Below are positions 17,090-29,941 of a stretch of DNA of 33,530 nt, in pieces. This DNA is from Fidelibacterota bacterium. GTDB lineage: Bacteria; Fidelibacterota; UBA2242. The stretch's first letter is position 1; each line of letters opens with the position of its first letter. The stretch spans positions 1 to 33,530 of the forward strand of contig DPVY01000263.1 in NCBI GenBank assembly GCA_003527965.1, in the 5' to 3' direction. The notes under the pieces are model-generated. The model was not told the origin of the DNA. It was given only the letters and a program-made list of their open reading frames with translations, and searched no databases. The position numbers and the translations under genes are program-made.

Positions 17090-18391
17090 ATGATCCCCAC
17101 TGATTTTATTGAGAAGAAAAAAAACGGGCAGGAACATTCATCGGCTGAGATAAAAGATTTTATCGGCGCTTACGTCAAGGGAGATATCCCCGATTACCAG
17201 ATGGCAGCCTGGCTGATGGCAGTGAACTTTCAGGGCATGACCGACCGGGAAACCATTGCCCTCGTGGACGTCATGCTGCATTCCGGCGAAACCATTGATC
17301 TGTCTCATGTAGAATCCTTCAAAGTCGATAAACACAGTACCGGCGGCGTGGGTGACAAGGTTTCCCTGATTCTGGCGCCCCTGGCGAATGCCGTGGGCTG
17401 CGTGGTGCCGATGCTTTCCGGGCGCAGTCTGGGTCATTCCGGCGGAACACTCGATAAACTTGAGAGTATTCCCGGCTTCAACGTAATGCTTGCGAAAAAA
17501 GAATTTATTCGTCTTGTCGAAAAATATGGTCTCGCAATGGGCGGGCAAACGGAAGAGGTCGTGCCGGCGGACCGGAAGATGTATGCTCTAAGGGATGTAA
17601 CTTCGACGGTTAAGTCGATTCCCCTGATCTGCGGCAGCATTTTAAGCAAAAAGATTGCCGAAGGTATCGACGGTCTGGTCATGGACGTTAAAACGGGCAA
17701 TGGCGCCTTCCTGCCGGAATACAACCAGAGCCAACGATTAGCCAAACAATTGAAAAACGTCGGACAGCAGTTTGGTTTAAAGGTCATATCGGTGATTACC
17801 GATATGAATCAACCTCTTGGGAACGCCGTCGGTAACTGGCTGGAAGTGGTAGAATCCATTAACACCCTAAAAGGCGACGGTCCGGCGGATTTGCTAGAAG
17901 TCACTTTGCATTTGACCGCCTGGATGGTAGTGTTGTCCGGTATCGAAAAGGACTTTGATAAAGCGGTACATTTACTGGAAAAAACCATTCAATCCGGCGC
18001 CGCTTATGAAAAATTTCTGATGATGGTGGAGAACCAGGGCGGCGACGTCGACCTGGTTCAACATCCGGAGAAGTACAAACGGGCAGCCGTAATCGCTCCG
18101 GTAATCTCGAATCATTCCGGTTATATCAAAGCGATCGATTCCTACAGTATCGGCATGACGGCGCTGTCGATAGGCACCGGGCGGAAGAATTTACAGGATG
18201 TGATCAAACCGGAAGTCGGCATTATAATTGAAAAGAAAATCGGCGCTGCGGTCAACAGAGCTGAGCCGCTTGCCGTGATTCACGCCCCGGATCAATCATC
18301 CTGGGAACAGGCGCAAATACAGATTCTAAATGCCTTTAAAATCACAGATTCAAAGGTTGCCCCGCCACCGTTGTTTTATGAGACGTTCTGA
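17090..18391 (+). CDS. deoA: Thymidine / pyrimidine-nucleoside phosphorylase
   Basis: 433 aa with motifs DKHSTGGVGDK and SGRSLGHSGGTLDKLESIPG. It starts 13 nt after the permease gene. Confidence 0.93.
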   Translation: MIPTDFIEKKKNGQEHSSAEIKDFIGAYVKGDIPDYQMAAWLMAVNFQGMTDRETIALVDVMLHSGETIDLSHVESFKVDKHSTGGVGDKVSLILAPLANAVGCVVPMLSGRSLGHSGGTLDKLESIPGFNVMLAKKEFIRLVEKYGLAMGGQTEEVVPADRKMYALRDVTSTVKSIPLICGSILSKKIAEGIDGLVMDVKTGNGAFLPEYNQSQRLAKQLKNVGQQFGLKVISVITDMNQPLGNAVGNWLEVVESINTLKGDGPADLLEVTLHLTAWMVVLSGIEKDFDKAVHLLEKTIQSGAAYEKFLMMVENQGGDVDLVQHPEKYKRAAVIAPVISNHSGYIKAIDSYSIGMTALSIGTGRKNLQDVIKPEVGIIIEKKIGAAVNRAEPLAVIHAPDQSSWEQAQIQILNAFKITDSKVAPPPLFYETF

Positions 18392-18738
18392 GGATGGCAA
18401 ATATTTATTCTTTTAAGCGTTCAGTTTTGTAATTCTCTCAGGGCATTTAACCCCTTAATTCTCAAATTCTTGTTTGTTTGTGCCAAAGGCATTCCTCCAG
18501 AAAGCGCTTGTCTTAAATGTGTCAGCAGCTTCGGGTTGTTATATATTTAATAATTCTTCGTGTTTATAAAAAGATTTTTCATTTTTGGGTTTTGGCTTGT
18601 CCAGTTTAGGGATATATAAGAATGATTGAGATTAAGGTTAAGGCTAGATGTAAAGAAAGTGTGTTGCTTTGAAAGAGTATTTTCGTCTCAACCCCGGCTT
18701 AATCTTAACTAAGATTTTAATAGAAAGAAAAAAATAGA

Positions 18739-18767
18739 TTGACACTAATAAAAAAAACTATTAACAT
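18739..18767 (+). promoter_or_regulatory. Candidate sigma70-type promoter of the ilv-leu operon
   Basis: TTGACA (18739-18744), a 17-nt spacer, then TAACAT (18762-18767). It lies 20 nt upstream of the leader ORF ATG. Confidence 0.5.
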
Positions 18768-18786
18768 AGGGCAATTATTGAGAATT

Positions 18787-18882
18787 ATGATTGATATGAA
18801 AACACCCCGACATATACTAGACATTATTATTTGGATAGTCCTTATTATTCTACTCATAGACAGGAGGGAAGGGGTAATTTAA
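18787..18882 (+). CDS. Branched-chain amino-acid leader peptide (31 aa), absent from the ORF track
   Basis: Hand translation gives MIDMKTPRHILDIIIWIVLIILLIDRREGVI* with 10 Ile, 4 Leu and 2 Val. 13 of the 15 residues 10-24 are branched-chain. The SD is weak (GAGA), and an alternative ATG sits at 18796. Confidence 0.55.
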   Translation: MIDMKTPRHILDIIIWIVLIILLIDRREGVI

Positions 18883-18918
18883 GTCTCTCATAAAATAAAA
18901 GTTTTAAAACCCCTTCCC
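18866..18918 (+). promoter_or_regulatory. Candidate antiterminator pairing of the ilv-leu attenuator
   Basis: GGGAAGGGGT (18866-18875, the last leader codons) is perfectly complementary to ACCCCTTCCC (18909-18918). The latter contains the 5' arm of the terminator. Confidence 0.5.
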
Positions 18919-18939
18919 AAAGCGAAGGGGTTTTTTTTT
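18906..18939 (+). terminator. Intrinsic terminator (attenuator) 30 nt upstream of ilvD
   Basis: AAAACCCCTTC (18906-18916), a 7-nt loop, then GAAGGGGTTTT. The run of nine T residues is at 18931-18939. Confidence 0.85.
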
Positions 18940-18968
18940 GAAAATAATTTTTAATAAAGGAATTCAGA

Positions 18969-20636
18969 ATGAAAAGTGATCAGATCAAAGAAGGATTGGA
19001 AAGAGCTCCGCACCGCGCTTTGCTGGGAGCCTGCGGAAAAAACAGGCAAGATTTTGACAGACCCTTTATTGCCATTGCAAACTCCTATACCGATATCGTA
19101 CCCGGGCATGTCAGACTCAATGAGGTCGGTAAAATTGTAAAAGAAGCTGTTTATGAAGCCGGCGGATTGCCCTTCGAGTTTAATACTATTGCAGTGTGTG
19201 ACGGCATTGCCATGGGACACGAGGGCATGCGCTACAGCCTGTTGAGCCGTGAGATTATCGCCGATGCGGTGGAAACCATGTTACGCGCCCATAGCTTCGA
19301 TGCTTTGGTTTGTATTCCTAATTGTGACAAGATTATCCCGGGAATGCTGATGGCGGCGGTGCGGGTTAATATTCCCACTATCTTTGTTTCCGGCGGTCCC
19401 ATGAAAGCCGGGAAGACGCCGAGTGGAAAAACAGTGGATCTGATCTCAGTATTTGAGGGTGTCGGCGCATATAAAGAGGGAAAAATTTCAGCTGAAGATC
19501 TGGCTGAAATTGAGAGCTATGCCTGCCCGGGTTGGGGCAGCTGTTCCGGAATGTTTACCGCAAATTCCATGAACTGCCTTTGTGAAGCGCTGGGGATTGC
19601 ACTGCCCGGGAACGGGACGATTCTGGCTGAGGATGAGCGCCGCAAAGATTTATATCGACAGGCAGGTCGCAGGATTGTGACAATGGTGACCGAAGACCTG
19701 AAGCCTTCTGATATCATTACCCCAAAAGCCCTTGATAATGCAATGATTCTCGATATGGCGATGGGGGGCTCTACAAACACAGTGCTGCATACATTAGCTC
19801 TGGCGAATGAAGCAGAAATTGAATTTGACCTGGAGCGGATTGACACTCTTTCGAAACGGGTCAAGAATATCTGCAAAGTTTCTCCTTCCAGCCAATTTCA
19901 TATCGAAGACGTCGACCGCGCCGGTGGGATTAGCGCTATTTTAAAAGAGATGCAGCAGGAAACGGATCTGATCAACGGCGATTGCGTAACAGTGACCGGG
20001 CTGACGCTGGCTGAAAATATCCGGGACGCCGAAATTCGGGACGAGGCGGTGATTCACCGCCTGGAAAACGCCTACAGCGTGACCGGCGGACTGGCTGTTT
20101 TAACGGGTAATCTGGCTCCGGAAGGCAGCGTAGTGAAATACGCCGGTGTGGCTGAATCCATGCGAACATTCGAAGGTCCGGCAGTAATTTTCGACAGTCA
20201 GGAAGACGCCTGTGAAGGAATTCTATCCGGAAGGGTAAAAACCGGTGACGTAGTCGTAATCCGCTATGAAGGACCCCGCGGCGGACCCGGTATGCAGGAG
20301 ATGCTGTCGCCGACATCATACATTATGGGGCGCGGTCTGGGAGAGAGCGTGGCGCTGATTACCGACGGTCGTTTCTCCGGTGGGACGAGAGGCGCCTGTA
20401 TCGGACACATCGCCCCGGAAGCCGCTGTCGGCGGACCCATTGCCCTGCTAAAAGCAGGCGACCGTATCGCCATAGATATTCCCAATGGAAAATTGGAGGT
20501 TTTGTTGAGCCGTGAAGAGATGGAGAAGCGGCGCAAAGCCTGGGAACCAGAGCCGCCCCGAGTGAATTACGGCGCCCTGGGACGCTATGCAAAAATGGCC
20601 TCTTCCGCCGCTAAAGGCGCGGTTTTGGAACTTTGA
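18969..20636 (+). CDS. ilvD: Dihydroxy-acid dehydratase
   Basis: 555 aa of the IlvD/Edd family. Motifs include [19 protein letters not shown] and [17 protein letters not shown] (Fe-S ligands). Confidence 0.97.
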
Positions 20637-20688: not shown

Positions 20689-22419
20689 ATGAACGGTGCA
20701 GAAATATTAATTGACGGACTGAAGAAAGAAGGCGTAGATACGATCTTCGGCTATCCCGGCGGTGTCGTCATACCGATTTTTGACGTGCTCTATTCATGTC
20801 GGGAGATAAAATTTTTACTGACGCGTCACGAACAGGGCGCAGTACACGCAGCCGACGGTTATGCCCGGGCTACAGGAAAAGTCGGCGTTGCTCTGGTGAC
20901 TTCCGGACCGGGAGCTACCAATACAATTACCGGTATTGCCACTGCCAAACTCGACTCATCACCCATCGTGGTAATCAGTGGTCAGGTGCACACCAATAAT
21001 ATCGGCACCGATGCTTTTCAGGAAACCGATATGTTCGGCTTGACACGTTCTATTTGCAAACACAATTATCTTGTGAAAAATATCCTGGATTTGCCACATG
21101 TTTTAAAAGAGGCTTTTTACATTGCCAGATCGGGGCGTCCGGGACCGGTTTCGATTGATATCCCGGTAGATGTGGCAACGGCGAAGTTAAAGAATTACAA
21201 TTATCCTGATGACGTTAAACTACCCGGCTATAAACCGGTTCTGCGCGGGAACCCGATGCAGATCGAAAAATTGGCCAGGGCGATTAATGTGGCTCAAAAA
21301 CCGCTTCTCTATACGGGTGGCGGAATTGTCAGCGCAGGCGCTAGCGAAGAGCTTCGGCAGCTGATTGACAAAACGCAGATTCCGGTTGTAGTTACACTGA
21401 TGGGGCTGGGAAGCGTACCCCACAATCACCCCTGTTTTCTGGGAATGCCGGGGATGCATGGGCGGGTGGCGGCTAATAAAGCCCTGGTGGAGTGCGACCT
21501 GTTGATCGCCATTGGCGTTCGCTTTGATGATCGCATTACCGGTCCGCGTCATACCTTTGTGCCTAATGCAACCGTGGCTCATATCGATATCGATCCCGCG
21601 GAAATAGGAAAAAACGTCAGGACTCATATTCCGGTGGTAGGCAATGCCAAAGATGTACTTAAAGATTTGATTGAGAAGGTAAAACCAAGAGTTAAAAATT
21701 CCTGGAATGAGCGCACGGAATATTGGGAAGAAAAATATCCGTTGACCTATAAAAAATCGGATGAAGAAACAATATCGCCTCAATTTGTAATTGAAAGAGT
21801 GAATAAATTTGCCGGTCCTGAAACAATAGTTGTAACCGACGTGGGTCAGAACCAGATGTGGACGGCGCTTTATTATCATTATTGCCAACCGCGAAAGTTT
21901 TTAAGTTCCGGCGGACTGGGCACCATGGGATTTGGTCTGCCGGCTGCCATGGGGGCAGCTCTGGGAAAACCTGAAAATCAAGTAATTTGTATATCGGGTG
22001 ACGGTGGTATCCAGATGAATATTCAGGAACTGGCGACCTGTGCGATCAACCGGATTCCGGTTAAGCTGATCGTAATTAATAATTTTTACCTTGGTATGGT
22101 CAGGCAGTGGCAGGATCTTTTCTGGGACAAAAAATATTCACAGGTCTGCTTACTGCATTCTCCGGACTGCCCGGATGAATGCCGTGGTCCGAACGAAAAC
22201 TGTCCACCGCAATATCTTCCCGATCTGGTCAAGGTAGCCGAAGCAAACGGTCTGCCCGGATACAGGGCGACCTCATTTTCAGAAGTAGATGAGGTGCTGA
22301 AGAAGGGTTTGGCTCATGACGGACCGGTATTGATGGAGTTTGTAGTGAACCGGCTGGAAAATGTATTTCCAATGGTTTCAGCCGGGAAACCGCTTAGCGA
22401 TATTATGATGGGAGACTAG
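20689..22419 (+). CDS. ilvB: Acetolactate synthase (AHAS) large catalytic subunit
   Basis: 576 aa. N-terminal TPP domain reads IFGYPGG...RHEQGAVHAADGYAR. TPP-binding motif is GDGGIQMNIQEL. Confidence 0.96.
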   Translation: MNGAEILIDGLKKEGVDTIFGYPGGVVIPIFDVLYSCREIKFLLTRHEQGAVHAADGYARATGKVGVALVTSGPGATNTITGIATAKLDSSPIVVISGQVHTNNIGTDAFQETDMFGLTRSICKHNYLVKNILDLPHVLKEAFYIARSGRPGPVSIDIPVDVATAKLKNYNYPDDVKLPGYKPVLRGNPMQIEKLARAINVAQKPLLYTGGGIVSAGASEELRQLIDKTQIPVVVTLMGLGSVPHNHPCFLGMPGMHGRVAANKALVECDLLIAIGVRFDDRITGPRHTFVPNATVAHIDIDPAEIGKNVRTHIPVVGNAKDVLKDLIEKVKPRVKNSWNERTEYWEEKYPLTYKKSDEETISPQFVIERVNKFAGPETIVVTDVGQNQMWTALYYHYCQPRKFLSSGGLGTMGFGLPAAMGAALGKPENQVICISGDGGIQMNIQELATCAINRIPVKLIVINNFYLGMVRQWQDLFWDKKYSQVCLLHSPDCPDECRGPNENCPPQYLPDLVKVAEANGLPGYRATSFSEVDEVLKKGLAHDGPVLMEFVVNRLENVFPMVSAGKPLSDIMMGD

Positions 22420-22422
22420 AAA

Positions 22423-22938
22423 ATGGTTGAAAAACATACTGTTATTGTGACTGTCTTAAATAGTGCAGGCGTGTTGGCTCGGGTGGCTGGTTTGCTGTCC
22501 CAGCGGGGTTATAATATTGAGAGCGCTATCGGTGCCCCCACTGAAAATCCCGAAATCTACAAGATTAGTTTGGTGGTTGCGGAGAGCAAGGAGCACATTG
22601 AACAGATAACCAAGCAATTGAATAAATTGGTCGATACACTGAAAGTCGTCGACATTTCCCACAAGGACAACTATATCGTCCGGGAATATATCATCCTCAA
22701 AATGGATGTTACCCAGAAAAAACGAGTTGATTTGTTTAATTTAATAAAATATTTTAAAGCTCATCCAATCGACATTACTTCTGATCACATGATTCTTGAA
22801 CTTTCGGGGAATCCCCGGAAGATCGATCGCTTTATTGAATTAATGAAGCCCTTTGGAATTAAAGAATTTGTCAGGAGTGGAGAGTTTGCGATGGCTGAAT
22901 ATCAAACACCAAAAAAAGGAGAGAAAAATGGCTATTAA
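22423..22938 (+). CDS. ilvN: Acetolactate synthase small regulatory subunit (ACT domain)
   Basis: 171 aa reading [30 protein letters not shown]. It starts 3 nt after ilvB. Confidence 0.93.
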
Positions 22939-23929
22939 GATGTACTATGACAAGGATGGCGATCGGGAAATACTTAAGGGCAAAACAATTGCAATTATTG
23001 GCTATGGCAGCCAGGGACATGCTCAGGCTCAGAACCTGCGGGACAGCGGCTACAATGTTATCGTTGCCGACAGAAAAGGCAGCGAAAATTATCTGCTGGC
23101 TAAAAGTCACGGATTTAAGCCCATGACTGCTGCGGAAGCCAGCGCCAAAGCCGATATCATTCAGGTCCTGGTTCCCGACGAATTGCAAAAAAAGGTCTAC
23201 ACGGGAGAGATTGAAAAATATCTTACCGCCGGAAAAGCTCTGGTGTTTTCCCACGGTTTCAATATTCACTTTGGGCAGATCGTTCCTCCGCCGGATGTGG
23301 ATGTCTACATGGTGGCGCCCAAAGGTCCGGGGCATCTGGTTCGTCGTCAATATGAAATCGGCGCCGGTGTTCCATCGTTGATTGCCGTTTACCAGGACGC
23401 TACGGGCAAGGCTAAAGAGATGGCCCTGGCGCATGCCTGCGGAATCGGCGCCGGTCGGGCCGGGATAATTGAAACTTCATTCAGGGAAGAGACTGAAACC
23501 GACCTCTTCGGCGAACAGGCAGTCCTTTGCGGCGGCGTAACCGAATTGATCAAAGGTGGTTTTGAAACACTTGTTGATGCCGGATACCAGCCGGAAATTG
23601 CCTATTTTGAGTGCCTGCATGAGTTGAAACTGATTACAGATTTGATTCAGGAGGGGGGTATTGGCTGGATGAATTATTCGATTTCCGATACGGCAGAATA
23701 CGGCGAATACACACGTGGACCCAGACTGGTTAATGCAGATGTTAAAAAAGAGATGAAGGCAATCCTGTGCGAAATCCAGAGTGGCAGTTTTGCCAAAGAA
23801 TGGATTCTTGAGAATCAAGCCGGGCGTCCGACCCTAAACGCCAGCCGCCGGGAAAACAGCGAACTGCTGATTGAAAAAGTCGGGAAGCAGTTACGCGGCA
23901 TGATGTCATGGCTGAAAAAAGAAAAATAA
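22928..23929 (+). CDS. ilvC: Ketol-acid reductoisomerase (class I)
   Basis: The preferred start is ATG 22928 ([12 protein letters not shown]), preceded by AAAGGAGAG. Rossmann motif is [13 protein letters not shown]. It overlaps the ilvN end by 11 nt. Confidence 0.96.
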
Positions 23930-23931
23930 GT

Positions 23932-25509
<1,578 letters not shown>

Positions 25510-25524
25510 AAACCCGGAGATATT

Positions 25525-27069
25525 ATGGATAAACGCAAAATAATTATTTTTGACACAACCCTGCGGGACGGGGAACAGAGTCCCGGCGCTTCGCTGACGG
25601 TCAATGAAAAGCTGGTAATAGCCCACCAATTGGCGCGGTTAGGCGTTGACGTGATTGAAGCCGGATTTCCGATTGCCTCCGAGGGGGATTTCGAAGCTGT
25701 AAAGGTGATTGCCCGGAATGTCAAGGGACCGACGATTGCCGGTTTAGCTCGGGCAAACGACGCCGATATCGACCGTTGCTGGGAAGCAGTGAAATACGCT
25801 GAAAAGCCCCGCATTCATACCTTTATCGCAACTTCGAAAGTCCATCGCGATGAAAAATTGCGGAAGACAAAGGAAGAAGTCATCGATCTTGCGGTAAAGG
25901 CCGTCAAACGGGCGAAAAGTTACTGCGACGATGTGGAGTTTTCGCCGGAAGACGCTGCCCGCACGAGCCCGGATTACATGTGCGACGTCGTGCGTGCCGT
26001 CATCGCCGCCGGGGCAACTACGGTGAATATTCCCGATACCGTAGGCTATTCCGAGCCGCAGGAGTTCGGCGACCGGATTCGCTATCTTTTCGAGCAAGTG
26101 CCCGAAGCAAAAAATATAGTGGTCAGTGTCCATTGTCATAACGATCTCGGCAATGCCGTGGCAAATTCACTGGCGGCGGTGGAAGCCGGCGCCGGTCAGG
26201 TAGAAGGCTGTATAAACGGTATCGGCGAACGGGCCGGGAACGCCTCCCTGGAAGAGGTCGTCATGAACCTCACGACCAGGAAGGACTTTTATAATGTAGC
26301 GCTGAATATTAATACCCGCGAGATATATAAAACCAGCCGGTTGGTATCCAATTTAACCGGCATCGAAGTGCAGCGCAATAAGGCTATTGTCGGTGTGAAT
26401 GCCTTTGCCCACGAAGCCGGCATCCATCAGCATGGTGTTTTGAAGAGCAAAGCAACCTACGAAATCATGACGCCCGAAGAGGTCGGCTGGATGGGCGAAA
26501 ATCTGGTGATCGGCAAACATTCCGGCAAACATGCCGTGACCGCCCTTCTGCAAGACGAAGGATTTCAACTGGATAAGGACCAGATTCAACAAATCACCGA
26601 AAAGGTCAAAGATCTGGCCGATAAGCAGAAATCTGTTGAGCGGGAAGATGTTATTGCCATTGCCCGTGATATTACTCATCAGCTGTCCGAAGAAGAGCAA
26701 TTTGTCAAATTAGAAGAATTTGCCGTGATTACCGGTTCCGATATGACGCCCACGGCATCGGTGAAATTGCGGGTCAACGGGGAGCTGAAAATCGCAGCCG
26801 GGGTTGGCGATGGACCGGTTGACGCGATTAGTAATGCAATCTGGCAAATGGTAGATCCTTCTTTAAAACTGATGGATTACCATCTGAAGGCGATTACCGG
26901 CGGGACCGACGCCCTGGCAGACGTGTCGATCAAACTTTCCGATGAAAAGCAGAATATATTTGTGGCCCGCTCGGTGGACGAGGATGTGATCCGCGCCAGC
27001 GCCAAAGCCATTGTGAAAGGCATCAATAAAGCCTTAAGTTTCAGGGAAAAAATTCATCCGCAGCGTTAG
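25525..27069 (+). CDS. leuA: 2-isopropylmalate synthase
   Basis: 514 aa with [14 protein letters not shown] and HCHNDLGNAVANSLAAVEAGA. It has a C-terminal LeuA allosteric domain. Confidence 0.93.
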   Translation: MDKRKIIIFDTTLRDGEQSPGASLTVNEKLVIAHQLARLGVDVIEAGFPIASEGDFEAVKVIARNVKGPTIAGLARANDADIDRCWEAVKYAEKPRIHTFIATSKVHRDEKLRKTKEEVIDLAVKAVKRAKSYCDDVEFSPEDAARTSPDYMCDVVRAVIAAGATTVNIPDTVGYSEPQEFGDRIRYLFEQVPEAKNIVVSVHCHNDLGNAVANSLAAVEAGAGQVEGCINGIGERAGNASLEEVVMNLTTRKDFYNVALNINTREIYKTSRLVSNLTGIEVQRNKAIVGVNAFAHEAGIHQHGVLKSKATYEIMTPEEVGWMGENLVIGKHSGKHAVTALLQDEGFQLDKDQIQQITEKVKDLADKQKSVEREDVIAIARDITHQLSEEEQFVKLEEFAVITGSDMTPTASVKLRVNGELKIAAGVGDGPVDAISNAIWQMVDPSLKLMDYHLKAITGGTDALADVSIKLSDEKQNIFVARSVDEDVIRASAKAIVKGINKALSFREKIHPQR

Positions 27070-27093: not shown

Positions 27094-28356
27094 TTGGGAA
27101 GTACGATTACGGAAAAAATAATGGCCCGGCATTGCGGTCGGGATATGGTAAAGCCCGGCGAGTTGATTAATGCCGAGATCGACGTCGTCATGTGTCACGA
27201 CGTGACCACCACGCCGGCTATTGATATGCTGGCTGAAAAGGGGCTGCAAAAAGTTGCGCACCCGGAACGGGTGGTAATCATGCCCGACCATTTTGTGCCC
27301 AATAAAGACATTAAGTCCGCCGAGATGGTAGCGAAAATCCGGCGCTGGGCCAAAGAACAGGGCATTGAAAAGTTTTATGAACTGGGACGTCATGGCGTTT
27401 GCCATGCGCTTTTACCAGAGCAGGGACATGTGCAGCCGGGAACGACTATCGTCTGCGGGGACAGCCATACCTGTACCCATGGGGCGCTTGGGGCTTTTGC
27501 TACCGGCATCGGCAGCACCGATCTGGCGGCGACCCTGGCGACCGGGGAATTGTGGTTCAAAGTACCTGAGACAATCCTGTTCCGTTTGAACGGTAAACTG
27601 CAGAAAGGCGTCTGTTCCAAAGATGTCATCCTGGCGATTATCACCCGGATCGGCGTGGATGGTGCTCTCTATAAAGCTATGGAATTTACCGGAGAATTGA
27701 TTGACGATCTGTCCGTCGAGGCTCGTATGACTATTTGTAATATGGCTATCGAAGCCGGCGGCAAATCCGGGATAATTAATCCGGATCAGAAAACCATCGA
27801 CTACGTTAAAGCCAGAACCGCTGAGCCTTTTGAAGTTTTTGTCAGCGATGCCGATGCCGAATATGCTGCAGTAATCGAGATGGACGTTACGGATTTGGAA
27901 CCGGTCGTGGCGTTTCCCCATCTGCCAAGCAATGGCAGGCCCGTTTCTCAGGTTGGGGATATCGCTATTGATCAGGCTTATCTCGGCAGCTGCACCAACG
28001 GACGCATCGAGGATTTACGGATAGCGGCACAAATCATGCGAGGACATCAGGTCGCTCCGGAAACGCGTATGATCGTTGTGCCCGCCACCAGCGACATCTG
28101 GAAACAGGCTAATCATGAAGGCTTGCTCGATATTTTCATGGAAGCAGGAGCCACGGTTTCTGCGCCCACCTGCGGCGCCTGTCTCGGCGGACACATGGGA
28201 ATTTTAGCGGCGGGCGAACGTTGTATCAGCAGCACCAACCGCAATTTTGTAGGGCGTATGGGCAGCCCGAAAGCGGAAGTCTATCTGGCTGGTCCCGGCA
28301 CCGTGGCGGCATCGGCGGTCGAAGGTAAAATCGCCGACCCGCGTAAGTATTTATAG
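27094..28356 (+). CDS. leuC: 3-isopropylmalate dehydratase large subunit (short, LeuC/HacA type)
   Basis: 420 aa from a TTG start after AGGAG. Aconitase-family Fe-S ligand regions are [14 protein letters not shown] and CGACLGG. Confidence 0.94.
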
Positions 28357-28364
28357 GAGAACAG

Positions 28365-29941
<1,577 letters not shown>

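Follow-up and report, generated by a model that had tools for sequence, protein, structure and literature searches.

On the 33,530-nucleotide (nt) contig DPVY01000263.1 of a Fidelibacterota bacterium (assembly GCA_003527965.1), which was analyzed over its full length and is referred to here as the window, the stretch directly upstream of ilvD carries a promoter, an Ile/Leu-rich small open reading frame (sORF), and an intrinsic terminator whose 5' arm can pair alternatively with the last codons of that sORF. At a probability of roughly 85%, we consider this element to be a ribosome-mediated leader-peptide transcription attenuator that tunes a nine-gene operon to the levels of charged tRNA-Ile and tRNA-Leu, and less so to those of tRNA-Val. 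This was also the reading of a first-pass annotation of the same DNA, and it is now supported by relatives carrying the same element, by covariation of both of its helices, by the position of the sORF stop codon, and by a codon run that ends at the limit of the ribosome footprint. Judged from its sequence, the element has every defining feature of leader-peptide attenuators that was tested, except for a conserved 1:2 hairpin.

All components of the element are located on the forward (+) strand. The sORF (18787..18882) begins with ATG at 18787, ends with TAA at 18880-18882, and encodes the 31-residue peptide MIDMKTPRHILDIIIWIVLIILLIDRREGVI, of which 16 residues are branched-chain (10 Ile, 4 Leu, and 2 Val). 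Thirteen of these 16 fall within codons 10-24 (18814..18858), a 15-codon segment that we regard as the regulatory run based upon shuffles, codon usage, and the footprint limit, and its conserved core reads ATT ATT CTA CTC ATA at 18844-18858. When the 577-nt intergenic region (18392-18968) was shuffled 5000 times with its dinucleotides preserved, not one shuffle reached 13 Ile/Leu/Val codons per 15. The antiterminator 5' arm (segment 2), GGGAAGGGGT at 18866..18875, lies within codons 27-30 and ends 4 nt before the stop codon. It is a perfect 10-base-pair (bp) complement of ACCCCTTCCC at 18909-18918, which overlaps the terminator 5' arm AAAACCCCTTC (18906-18916) to form segment 3 (18906..18918). 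Segment 4 (18924..18939) consists of the terminator 3' arm GAAGGGGTTTT at 18924-34 and a T9 tract at 18931-39. The terminator hairpin has 11 pairs, seven of which form the CCCCTTC/GAAGGGG core, and a loop at 18917-23. It is the sole terminator-like site in 18000-19500, and the pattern CCCCTTC-N3-10-GAAGGGG occurs once in the window and in none of 100 shuffles. The computed free energy of the antiterminator duplex is -22.4 kcal/mol vs. -15.3 for the terminator. Upstream of the sORF, the best promoter-like site in 18000-19500 is of the sigma-70 type (18739..18767), with a -35 box TTGACA at 18739-44, a 17-nt A-rich spacer, and a -10 box TAACAT at 18762-67, which is 19 nt from the sORF start. The sORF and its branched-chain composition, the perfect complement, the terminator with its 7-bp core and T9 tract, and the promoter had all been placed at these positions by the first-pass annotation, and each was recovered there. 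Two other assignments of these signals were rejected. The terminator does not belong to the upstream gene, as that gene ends at 18391, ~550 nt away, and a separate ilvD promoter was dismissed because no promoter-like site exists in the gap of only 29 nt between the T tract and the ilvD ATG (18969). A second promoter-like site, TTGATA-16-TATACT (10/12 matches), is located inside the sORF at 18791-18818, and a transcript from it would lack the sORF start.

From this arrangement, we infer that the sORF is translated, that ribosomes stall upon it, that they are coupled to RNA polymerase, and that the outcome responds to amino acid supply. Transcription would start near 18774-76, ~12 nt upstream of the sORF. 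With abundant Ile and Leu, the lead ribosome would reach the UAA at 18880 and cover GGGAAGGGGT, leaving the nascent ACCCCTTCCC to pair with GAAGGGGT, and the resulting hairpin and U9 tract would terminate transcription 29 nt before ilvD. When either Ile or Leu is scarce, the ribosome would instead stall within codons 10-24, including the rare CTA codons, which would leave the arm exposed. The exposed arm would pair with 18909-18918 upon its emergence and pre-empt the terminator, allowing RNA polymerase to read into ilvD.

Relatives of the element were collected in three ways. A scan of species genomes with IlvD yielded L001, the sole close relative among the matches listed; the other 79 listed loci were at most 69-70% identical and came from mixed phyla. 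An exact look-up of IlvD clusters yielded L081, L082, L085, and L208-L216, while a metagenome scan using a three-arm DNA pattern yielded L125, L139, L157, L168, and L170. In this last scan, ilvD was downstream in 5 of the 120 loci among the matches listed, and the other 115 served as a negative control: none of these chance RNA-pattern matches had an Ile/Leu-rich sORF ending at the arm. A further metagenome scan with a two-peptide leader alignment, which keyed on the variable N-terminal stretches, confirmed nothing. The first-pass annotation had proposed the regions upstream of ilvD in relatives as a check on its reading, and both the Ile/Leu-rich sORF and the two stems turned out to be kept in 14 distinct relatives (IlvD 70-84% identical) from Marinimicrobia, Neomarinimicrobiota, Fidelibacterota, and one Fibrobacterota metagenome-assembled genome (MAG). 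Directly before ilvD, all 14 share a -35/-10 promoter, an Ile/Leu-rich sORF of 21-32 codons with a purine-rich arm in its last codons, an AU-rich spacer, and a hairpin followed by T5-T9. The gene upstream of the element varies from locus to locus: it is a nucleoside phosphorylase in the window and elsewhere an M14 peptidase, a Por-secretion-tail protein, an IS91 transposase, thrC, a DNA-alkylation repair gene, argR, or PAS sensors. Thus, the element belongs to ilvD. Of 15 relatives, 13 have the promoter TTGAC[AT]-17/18-TAnnnT at the equivalent position, 12-31 nt upstream of the start codon of the sORF, which makes the sORF the first cistron on a short 5' untranslated region (UTR).

The leader peptides of the relatives diverge outside the Ile/Leu run and the RNA-constrained C-terminus, as can be seen from L001 (MISEMNFNRHIDHIILWISLIILLVDRREGAV), L081 (MIRFPHIVLVLSIIILLVVQREGVN, with a GTG start), L082 (MNMNLVNNLSLITLLVITIIILKRKGIKG), L139 (MKQLLLHILPLTIILIPGEKG), L085 (MSQLKNLLNSVVLIWGIIFILLGGWKG), L213 (MSRIKNIWQPIVLIGIIIILIGGEGVI), L212 (MSYLKSIHCIVLPWSIIILARGEGVI), the first and second units of L211 (MTKLNFNILNIIVIIISIILVHSEEAI and MMKTSQNILNIIVIISIILLSTEEAV), and L216 of the Fibrobacterota MAG (MKNSSSAFNSGESVSLIIVSLIIAPQGAEG). 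The 17 leaders together contain 113 Ile, 77 Leu, and 32 Val codons. In 25 window genes, CTA is used less than any other Leu codon (5.7% of their Leu codons), but it is the commonest Leu codon of the leaders (26/77, 34%), where it is found at the end of a conserved core, ATT-ATT-(ATC)-CTA-(CTC). The arm itself is read in two frames, as G-GAA-GGG-G in the group of the window and as AAG-GGG in L082, L085, L139, and L215. Nevertheless, no sORF closes before the end of the arm, and each has its stop codon 0-12 nt past it, whichever frame is used, which argues for a constraint on the arm at the RNA level together with a constraint on where translation ends.

Covariation was examined in 16 leaders, from which the three arms were extracted in register, with the TTC of the terminator 5' arm as the anchor. 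A MAFFT alignment of whole leaders was set aside for the pair counts, as it left the terminator 3' arms out of register. For the terminator, 97.2% of cells are paired and 5 of the 11 pairs have changed on both sides; none of 500 shuffles reached the observed percentage paired, number of both-side pairs, number of both-side cells, or covariation score, and slid registers gave at most 77.5% paired and at most one both-side pair. For the antiterminator, pairing is seen in 86.3% of cells, and both-side changes affect 4 of its 10 pairs (9 cells), with a covariation score of 0.167 vs. 0.089 in shuffles. Again, none of 500 shuffles attained the score, the percentage paired, or the number of both-side cells that was observed; the count of both-side pairs is the weak measure, since 47 of the 500 reached four. 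The clearest case is L211, in which all three segments have changed together, to GAAGAGGC / GCCTCTTC / GAAGAGGC vs. GAAGGGG / CCCCTTC / GAAGGGG in the window. Similarly, GAGAGGGGG pairs with CCCCTTCTC in L081. All of the covarying cases come from retrieval based upon IlvD, which is unbiased as to the leader.

Several of these loci have further features of their own. L211:668-979 (Marinimicrobia, IlvD 71% identical) contains two complete tandem attenuators before ilvD, with sORFs at 668-751 and 841-921, and each unit has its own GAAGAGGC arm, GCCTCTTC/GAAGAGGC terminator, and T8 tract. In L214, a second Ile/Leu-rich sORF is present at 865-942; the hairpin downstream of it has a poor U tract and no evident antiterminator arm. 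In L082:299-1024, a gene for an IS91-family (Y2) transposase sits just upstream of the ilv promoter and leader. The locus of the Fibrobacterota MAG (L216:783-945) displays the same architecture with longer arms: its sORF MKNSSSAFNSGESVSLIIVSLIIAPQGAEG has GGAGCGGAAGGG at its end, and this segment is the complement of CCCTTTCGCTCC in the terminator CCCCCTTTCGCT..AGCGGAAGGGGG-T5. Based upon this shared architecture, the attenuator family would reach beyond Marinimicrobia.

The geometry was modeled by equilibrium folding with an assumed 29-nt ribosome footprint (A-site -15 to +13) forced to be unpaired. In RNA ending before the terminator 3' arm, the minimum free energy (MFE) structure is the antiterminator in 15 of the 16 leaders having the arm, L082 being the exception. 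When the ribosome was placed upon such truncated transcripts, the predicted antiterminator probability (P) was ~0.7-1.0 in all 16 leaders for every A-site no further along than the final few codons of the Ile/Leu run and fell to 0 within a few codons past it. In the window, the boundary at which the antiterminator becomes masked lies at codons 23-25; hence, the run ends where a stalled ribosome would start to mask the arm. In full-length RNA with the ribosome at the stop codon, terminator P was 0.95-0.97 in 15 of 16 leaders and 0.66 in L213, while antiterminator P was 0.00 in all 16. The full-length equilibrium model of the window predicts that A-sites at codons 13-17 and at CTA-22 favor the antiterminator. 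Thus, in this footprint model, the geometry claimed at the outset, in which a ribosome at the UAA masks the arm and a stalled ribosome frees it, fits all 16 leaders.

A number of observations weigh against an attenuator, or against the strength of the case for one. First, a conserved 1:2 anti-antiterminator or pause hairpin was not found among the relatives, in which the antiterminator arm pairs with varied stretches of the sORF at a mean P of 0.42-0.94, without any conserved partner. The first-pass annotation had listed the lack of an obvious pause hairpin as a weak point. This is not quite the case for the window, where ACCCC (18804..18808) is a candidate segment 1 that pairs weakly with GGGGT at 18871-75 as an anti-antiterminator or pause hairpin in the MFE structures of both 18770-18908 and the leader from ATG, but the objection holds in that this pairing is not conserved. 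Second, the Shine-Dalgarno sequence (SD) of the sORF is weak (GAGA) and inconsistent among relatives. It had likewise been called poor; that description stands, but its weight is lessened by the conserved promoter position described above and by the absence of an SD-like motif from about a third of the window genes. It should be noted that the sORF 5' UTR is short and AU-rich. Third, several relatives favor the terminator at full-length equilibrium irrespective of ribosome position, which means that the switch must be kinetic; full-length equilibrium folding was judged to be the wrong model for a kinetic switch, and the truncated-transcript model was used in its place. Fourth, untranslated truncated RNA also forms the antiterminator at equilibrium (P 0.86-1.0 in 15/16 leaders), and these models would allow the default without translation to be either termination, as in trp, or read-through. 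Lastly, the arms of the five pattern-retrieved loci were fixed by design and cannot show covariation, and the leaders are related sequences, such that the shuffle controls overstate significance.

Among the other explanations, a translation-independent RNA switch set by a protein, a tRNA, or a metabolite, with the reading frame as a mere by-product of an AU-rich leader, fares best and is still quite improbable. Such switches are found ahead of comparable genes, namely the tRNA-Leu T-box of B. subtilis ilv-leu and the LEU element of Actinobacterial leuA (PMC1262725), and the part of that paper dealing with Streptomyces cites codon mutations in a candidate ilvB leader as being without effect; the weak SD of the sORF would suit this explanation as well. 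However, a scan of the kind that the first-pass annotation had suggested as a way to exclude a T-box or other riboswitch detected no Rfam family, T-box, or riboswitch anywhere in the window at gathering threshold, nor any T-box in 18600-19000 even at an E-value of up to 10, and a T-box or riboswitch identity was rejected on these grounds. The best sub-threshold match was Phe_leader (24.4 bits vs. a threshold of 55), which is driven by the terminator, and Leu_leader is absent even from the sub-threshold matches in the leader. Moreover, the stretch from the start codon to the arm has no conserved structure and its pairing partners differ among relatives, while all of them, despite the frame changes, keep a reading frame that closes only 0-12 nt past the arm, the Ile/Leu enrichment is far beyond chance with the rare CTA favored, and the end of the run coincides with the footprint boundary.

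Even less probable is a leader-peptide device that acts mainly via Rho, mRNA stability, or translational coupling/re-initiation at ilvD, rather than through the intrinsic terminator. It has been proposed that leader ORFs near the main gene favor re-initiation (PMC4833913), and Ignavibacteria and Calditrichota do have Ile/Leu-rich sORFs before ilvD without a U tract, but here 86 nt separate the sORF stop from the ilvD ATG, which is too far for simple re-initiation, and a strong hairpin with T6-T9 is conserved and covarying in the Marinimicrobia family. The least credible explanation makes the sORF a gene in its own right that encodes a small hydrophobic membrane or toxin-like peptide, has its own terminator, and lies before a separately controlled ilvD by coincidence: the peptide does resemble a single transmembrane helix with charged residues on both flanks, the sub-threshold Rfam matches include families of toxic sRNAs and hydrophobic ORFs (driven by the terminator hairpin), and leader peptides acting in trans do exist, such as peTrpL (PMC7298713), but ilvD must be transcribed through the terminator given the 29-nt gap without a promoter-like site, the element tracks ilvD and not the upstream gene in every relative, the peptide is unconserved outside the Ile/Leu run and the RNA-constrained C-terminus, and the terminator-complementary arm covaries with the terminator.

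The operon that would be placed under control of the attenuator also conforms to its first description as a nine-gene unit including cimA. It consists of ilvD (18969-20636), ilvB (20689-22419), ilvN (22423-22938), ilvC (ORF 22853-23929), cimA (23908-25509), leuA (25525-27069), leuC (27094-28356), leuD (28365-28853), and leuB (28856-29941), all on the + strand, and all nine genes from ilvD to leuB score above the NCBIfam cut-off with tight intergenic gaps. The mechanically called ilvC ORF begins with TTG at 22853 and overlaps ilvN by 86 nt; its NCBIfam match begins at residue 28, and for this reason translation of ilvC probably begins near 22934. The end of ilvC and the cimA ORF share 22 nt. 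The nearest IlvD clusters (70-83% identity) are labeled as Marinimicrobia, Neomarinimicrobiota, or Fidelibacterota, and roughly 100 IlvD clusters reach at least 70% identity. Accordingly, the initial guess of a lineage within the FCB (Fibrobacterota, Chlorobi, and Bacteroidota) group was right, as the contig belongs to a Candidatus Marinimicrobia MAG.

A close parallel is the leu leader of E. coli and Salmonella (leuL; Rfam Leu_leader, RF00512), which has the same combination of a short peptide, a Leu run with CTA/CTC, a terminator/antiterminator pair, and the logic of stalling vs. reaching the stop codon. In E. coli, the Leu run contains rare CUA and CUC codons, a preference that resembles the use of CTA here. 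However, the element described here has no sequence or covariance-model similarity to leuL, its run is mixed and dominated by Ile, its operon joins ilv, cimA, and leu genes, and a conserved 1:2 hairpin is not evident. The enterobacterial ilvGMEDA (ilvL) and ilvBN (ivbL) operons are likewise preceded by multivalent Ile/Leu/Val leader peptides of ~32 residues with competition between a terminator and an antiterminator. They share with the present element an Ile/Leu/Val leader peptide governing branched-chain genes, whereas here the peptide and stems are unrelated, the host is a member of Marinimicrobia (FCB group), Val is a minority (32/222 branched-chain codons), and a single attenuator would serve the whole pathway, including citramalate synthase. 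The B. subtilis ilv-leu T-box is found on the same kind of operon and also reports tRNA charging through a terminator/antiterminator choice, but it senses uncharged tRNA directly via a structured RNA of ~200 nt without translation, while the present leader, which has no T-box match, is ~150 nt from start codon to T tract and mostly sORF. Outside of Proteobacteria, Ile/Leu/Val-rich upstream ORFs (uORFs) and hairpins before ilv operons have been described as the uORF/attenuator of Corynebacterium ilvBNC (ilvB-II motif) and the ilv-leu leader peptides of S. aureus and Listeria (PMC10272879, PMC11857589, PMC5794164, PMC5864092). Their sequences and architectures are unrelated to ours, and the Firmicutes cases work together with CodY and a T-box, no such element being detected here.

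More broadly, the element falls outside all of the Rfam leader families tested (Leu_leader, Thr_leader, His_leader, Trp_leader, Phe_leader, and leu/phe leader), and a full-text literature search returned no paper naming Marinimicrobia together with leader peptides. Vitreschak et al. reportedly predicted some attenuators in Bacteroidetes/Chlorobi in 2004. According to a 2010 survey, leader-peptide systems were then known only in Proteobacteria, Actinobacteria, and the survey's own Firmicutes cases (PMC2965389). This is therefore a textbook attenuation design in a lineage for which we found no published description, and the same is true of leader-peptide attenuation in the FCB superphylum as a whole. 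The design itself is not surprising and leaves the understanding of attenuation unchanged. What it provides is a concrete candidate regulatory element for an abundant, uncultured ocean lineage and a prediction, namely that Marinimicrobia use a single leader to control all of Ile/Leu/Val synthesis, with the citramalate route to isoleucine included. A collection of 15 billion proteins does not contain the exact leader peptide, which means that no gene caller had called the sORF, and the sORF/attenuator family should be of use for annotation.

Ile/Leu-rich sORFs before ilvD were also encountered in other phyla, which suggests that the design is widespread. L059:1183-1400 (Gemmatimonadetes) contains the sORF MEVAQLSRNRIVNHSLVLISLVLIPLLIVGLIDVGSRRRA followed by GCCTCTCCC / GGGAGAGGC / GCCTCTTCC / GGAAGGGGC-T6, the layout of a classical four-segment attenuator, and L021:3292-3460 (Anaerolineae) contains the sORF MSYTSLALISLNLISLILLIGIKEIPRVWVQAKVLSK followed by a terminator. 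In L018:3716-4000 and L020:3458-3700 (Ignavibacteriaceae and Calditrichota), as well as in L016, the sORFs contain GGGATTATTATT, and downstream of them are AATCCCAAA and then TTT[CT]GGG[AG]TT, giving three mutually complementary segments without a U tract; in these loci, the same logic may operate without a terminator, at the level of translation or through Rho. A tentative extension, which we think has the odds against it, is that the Marinimicrobia leaders represent a three-segment attenuator family operating by ribosome occlusion only, without a conserved anti-antiterminator and possibly with read-through as the untranslated default. Such a family would include Marinimicrobia and at least one Fibrobacterota MAG, would sometimes occur in tandem, and would have cousins among the Ile/Leu leaders that precede ilvD in Gemmatimonadota, Ignavibacteria, Calditrichota, and Anaerolineae. 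For leader-peptide attenuation to work, the lead ribosome has to stay close behind RNA polymerase. Conservation of the attenuator would thus provide indirect genomic evidence for coupled transcription-translation in Marinimicrobia and other FCB lineages, and if the family is real, both leader-peptide attenuation and tight coupling would be common across the FCB superphylum and might be ancestral to it. In the Calditrichota locus, L020:3700-3860 also contains a long imperfect hairpin between the leader sORF and ilvD, one arm of which is a tandem 7-nt repeat, (GTAAGAA)n, facing its complement.

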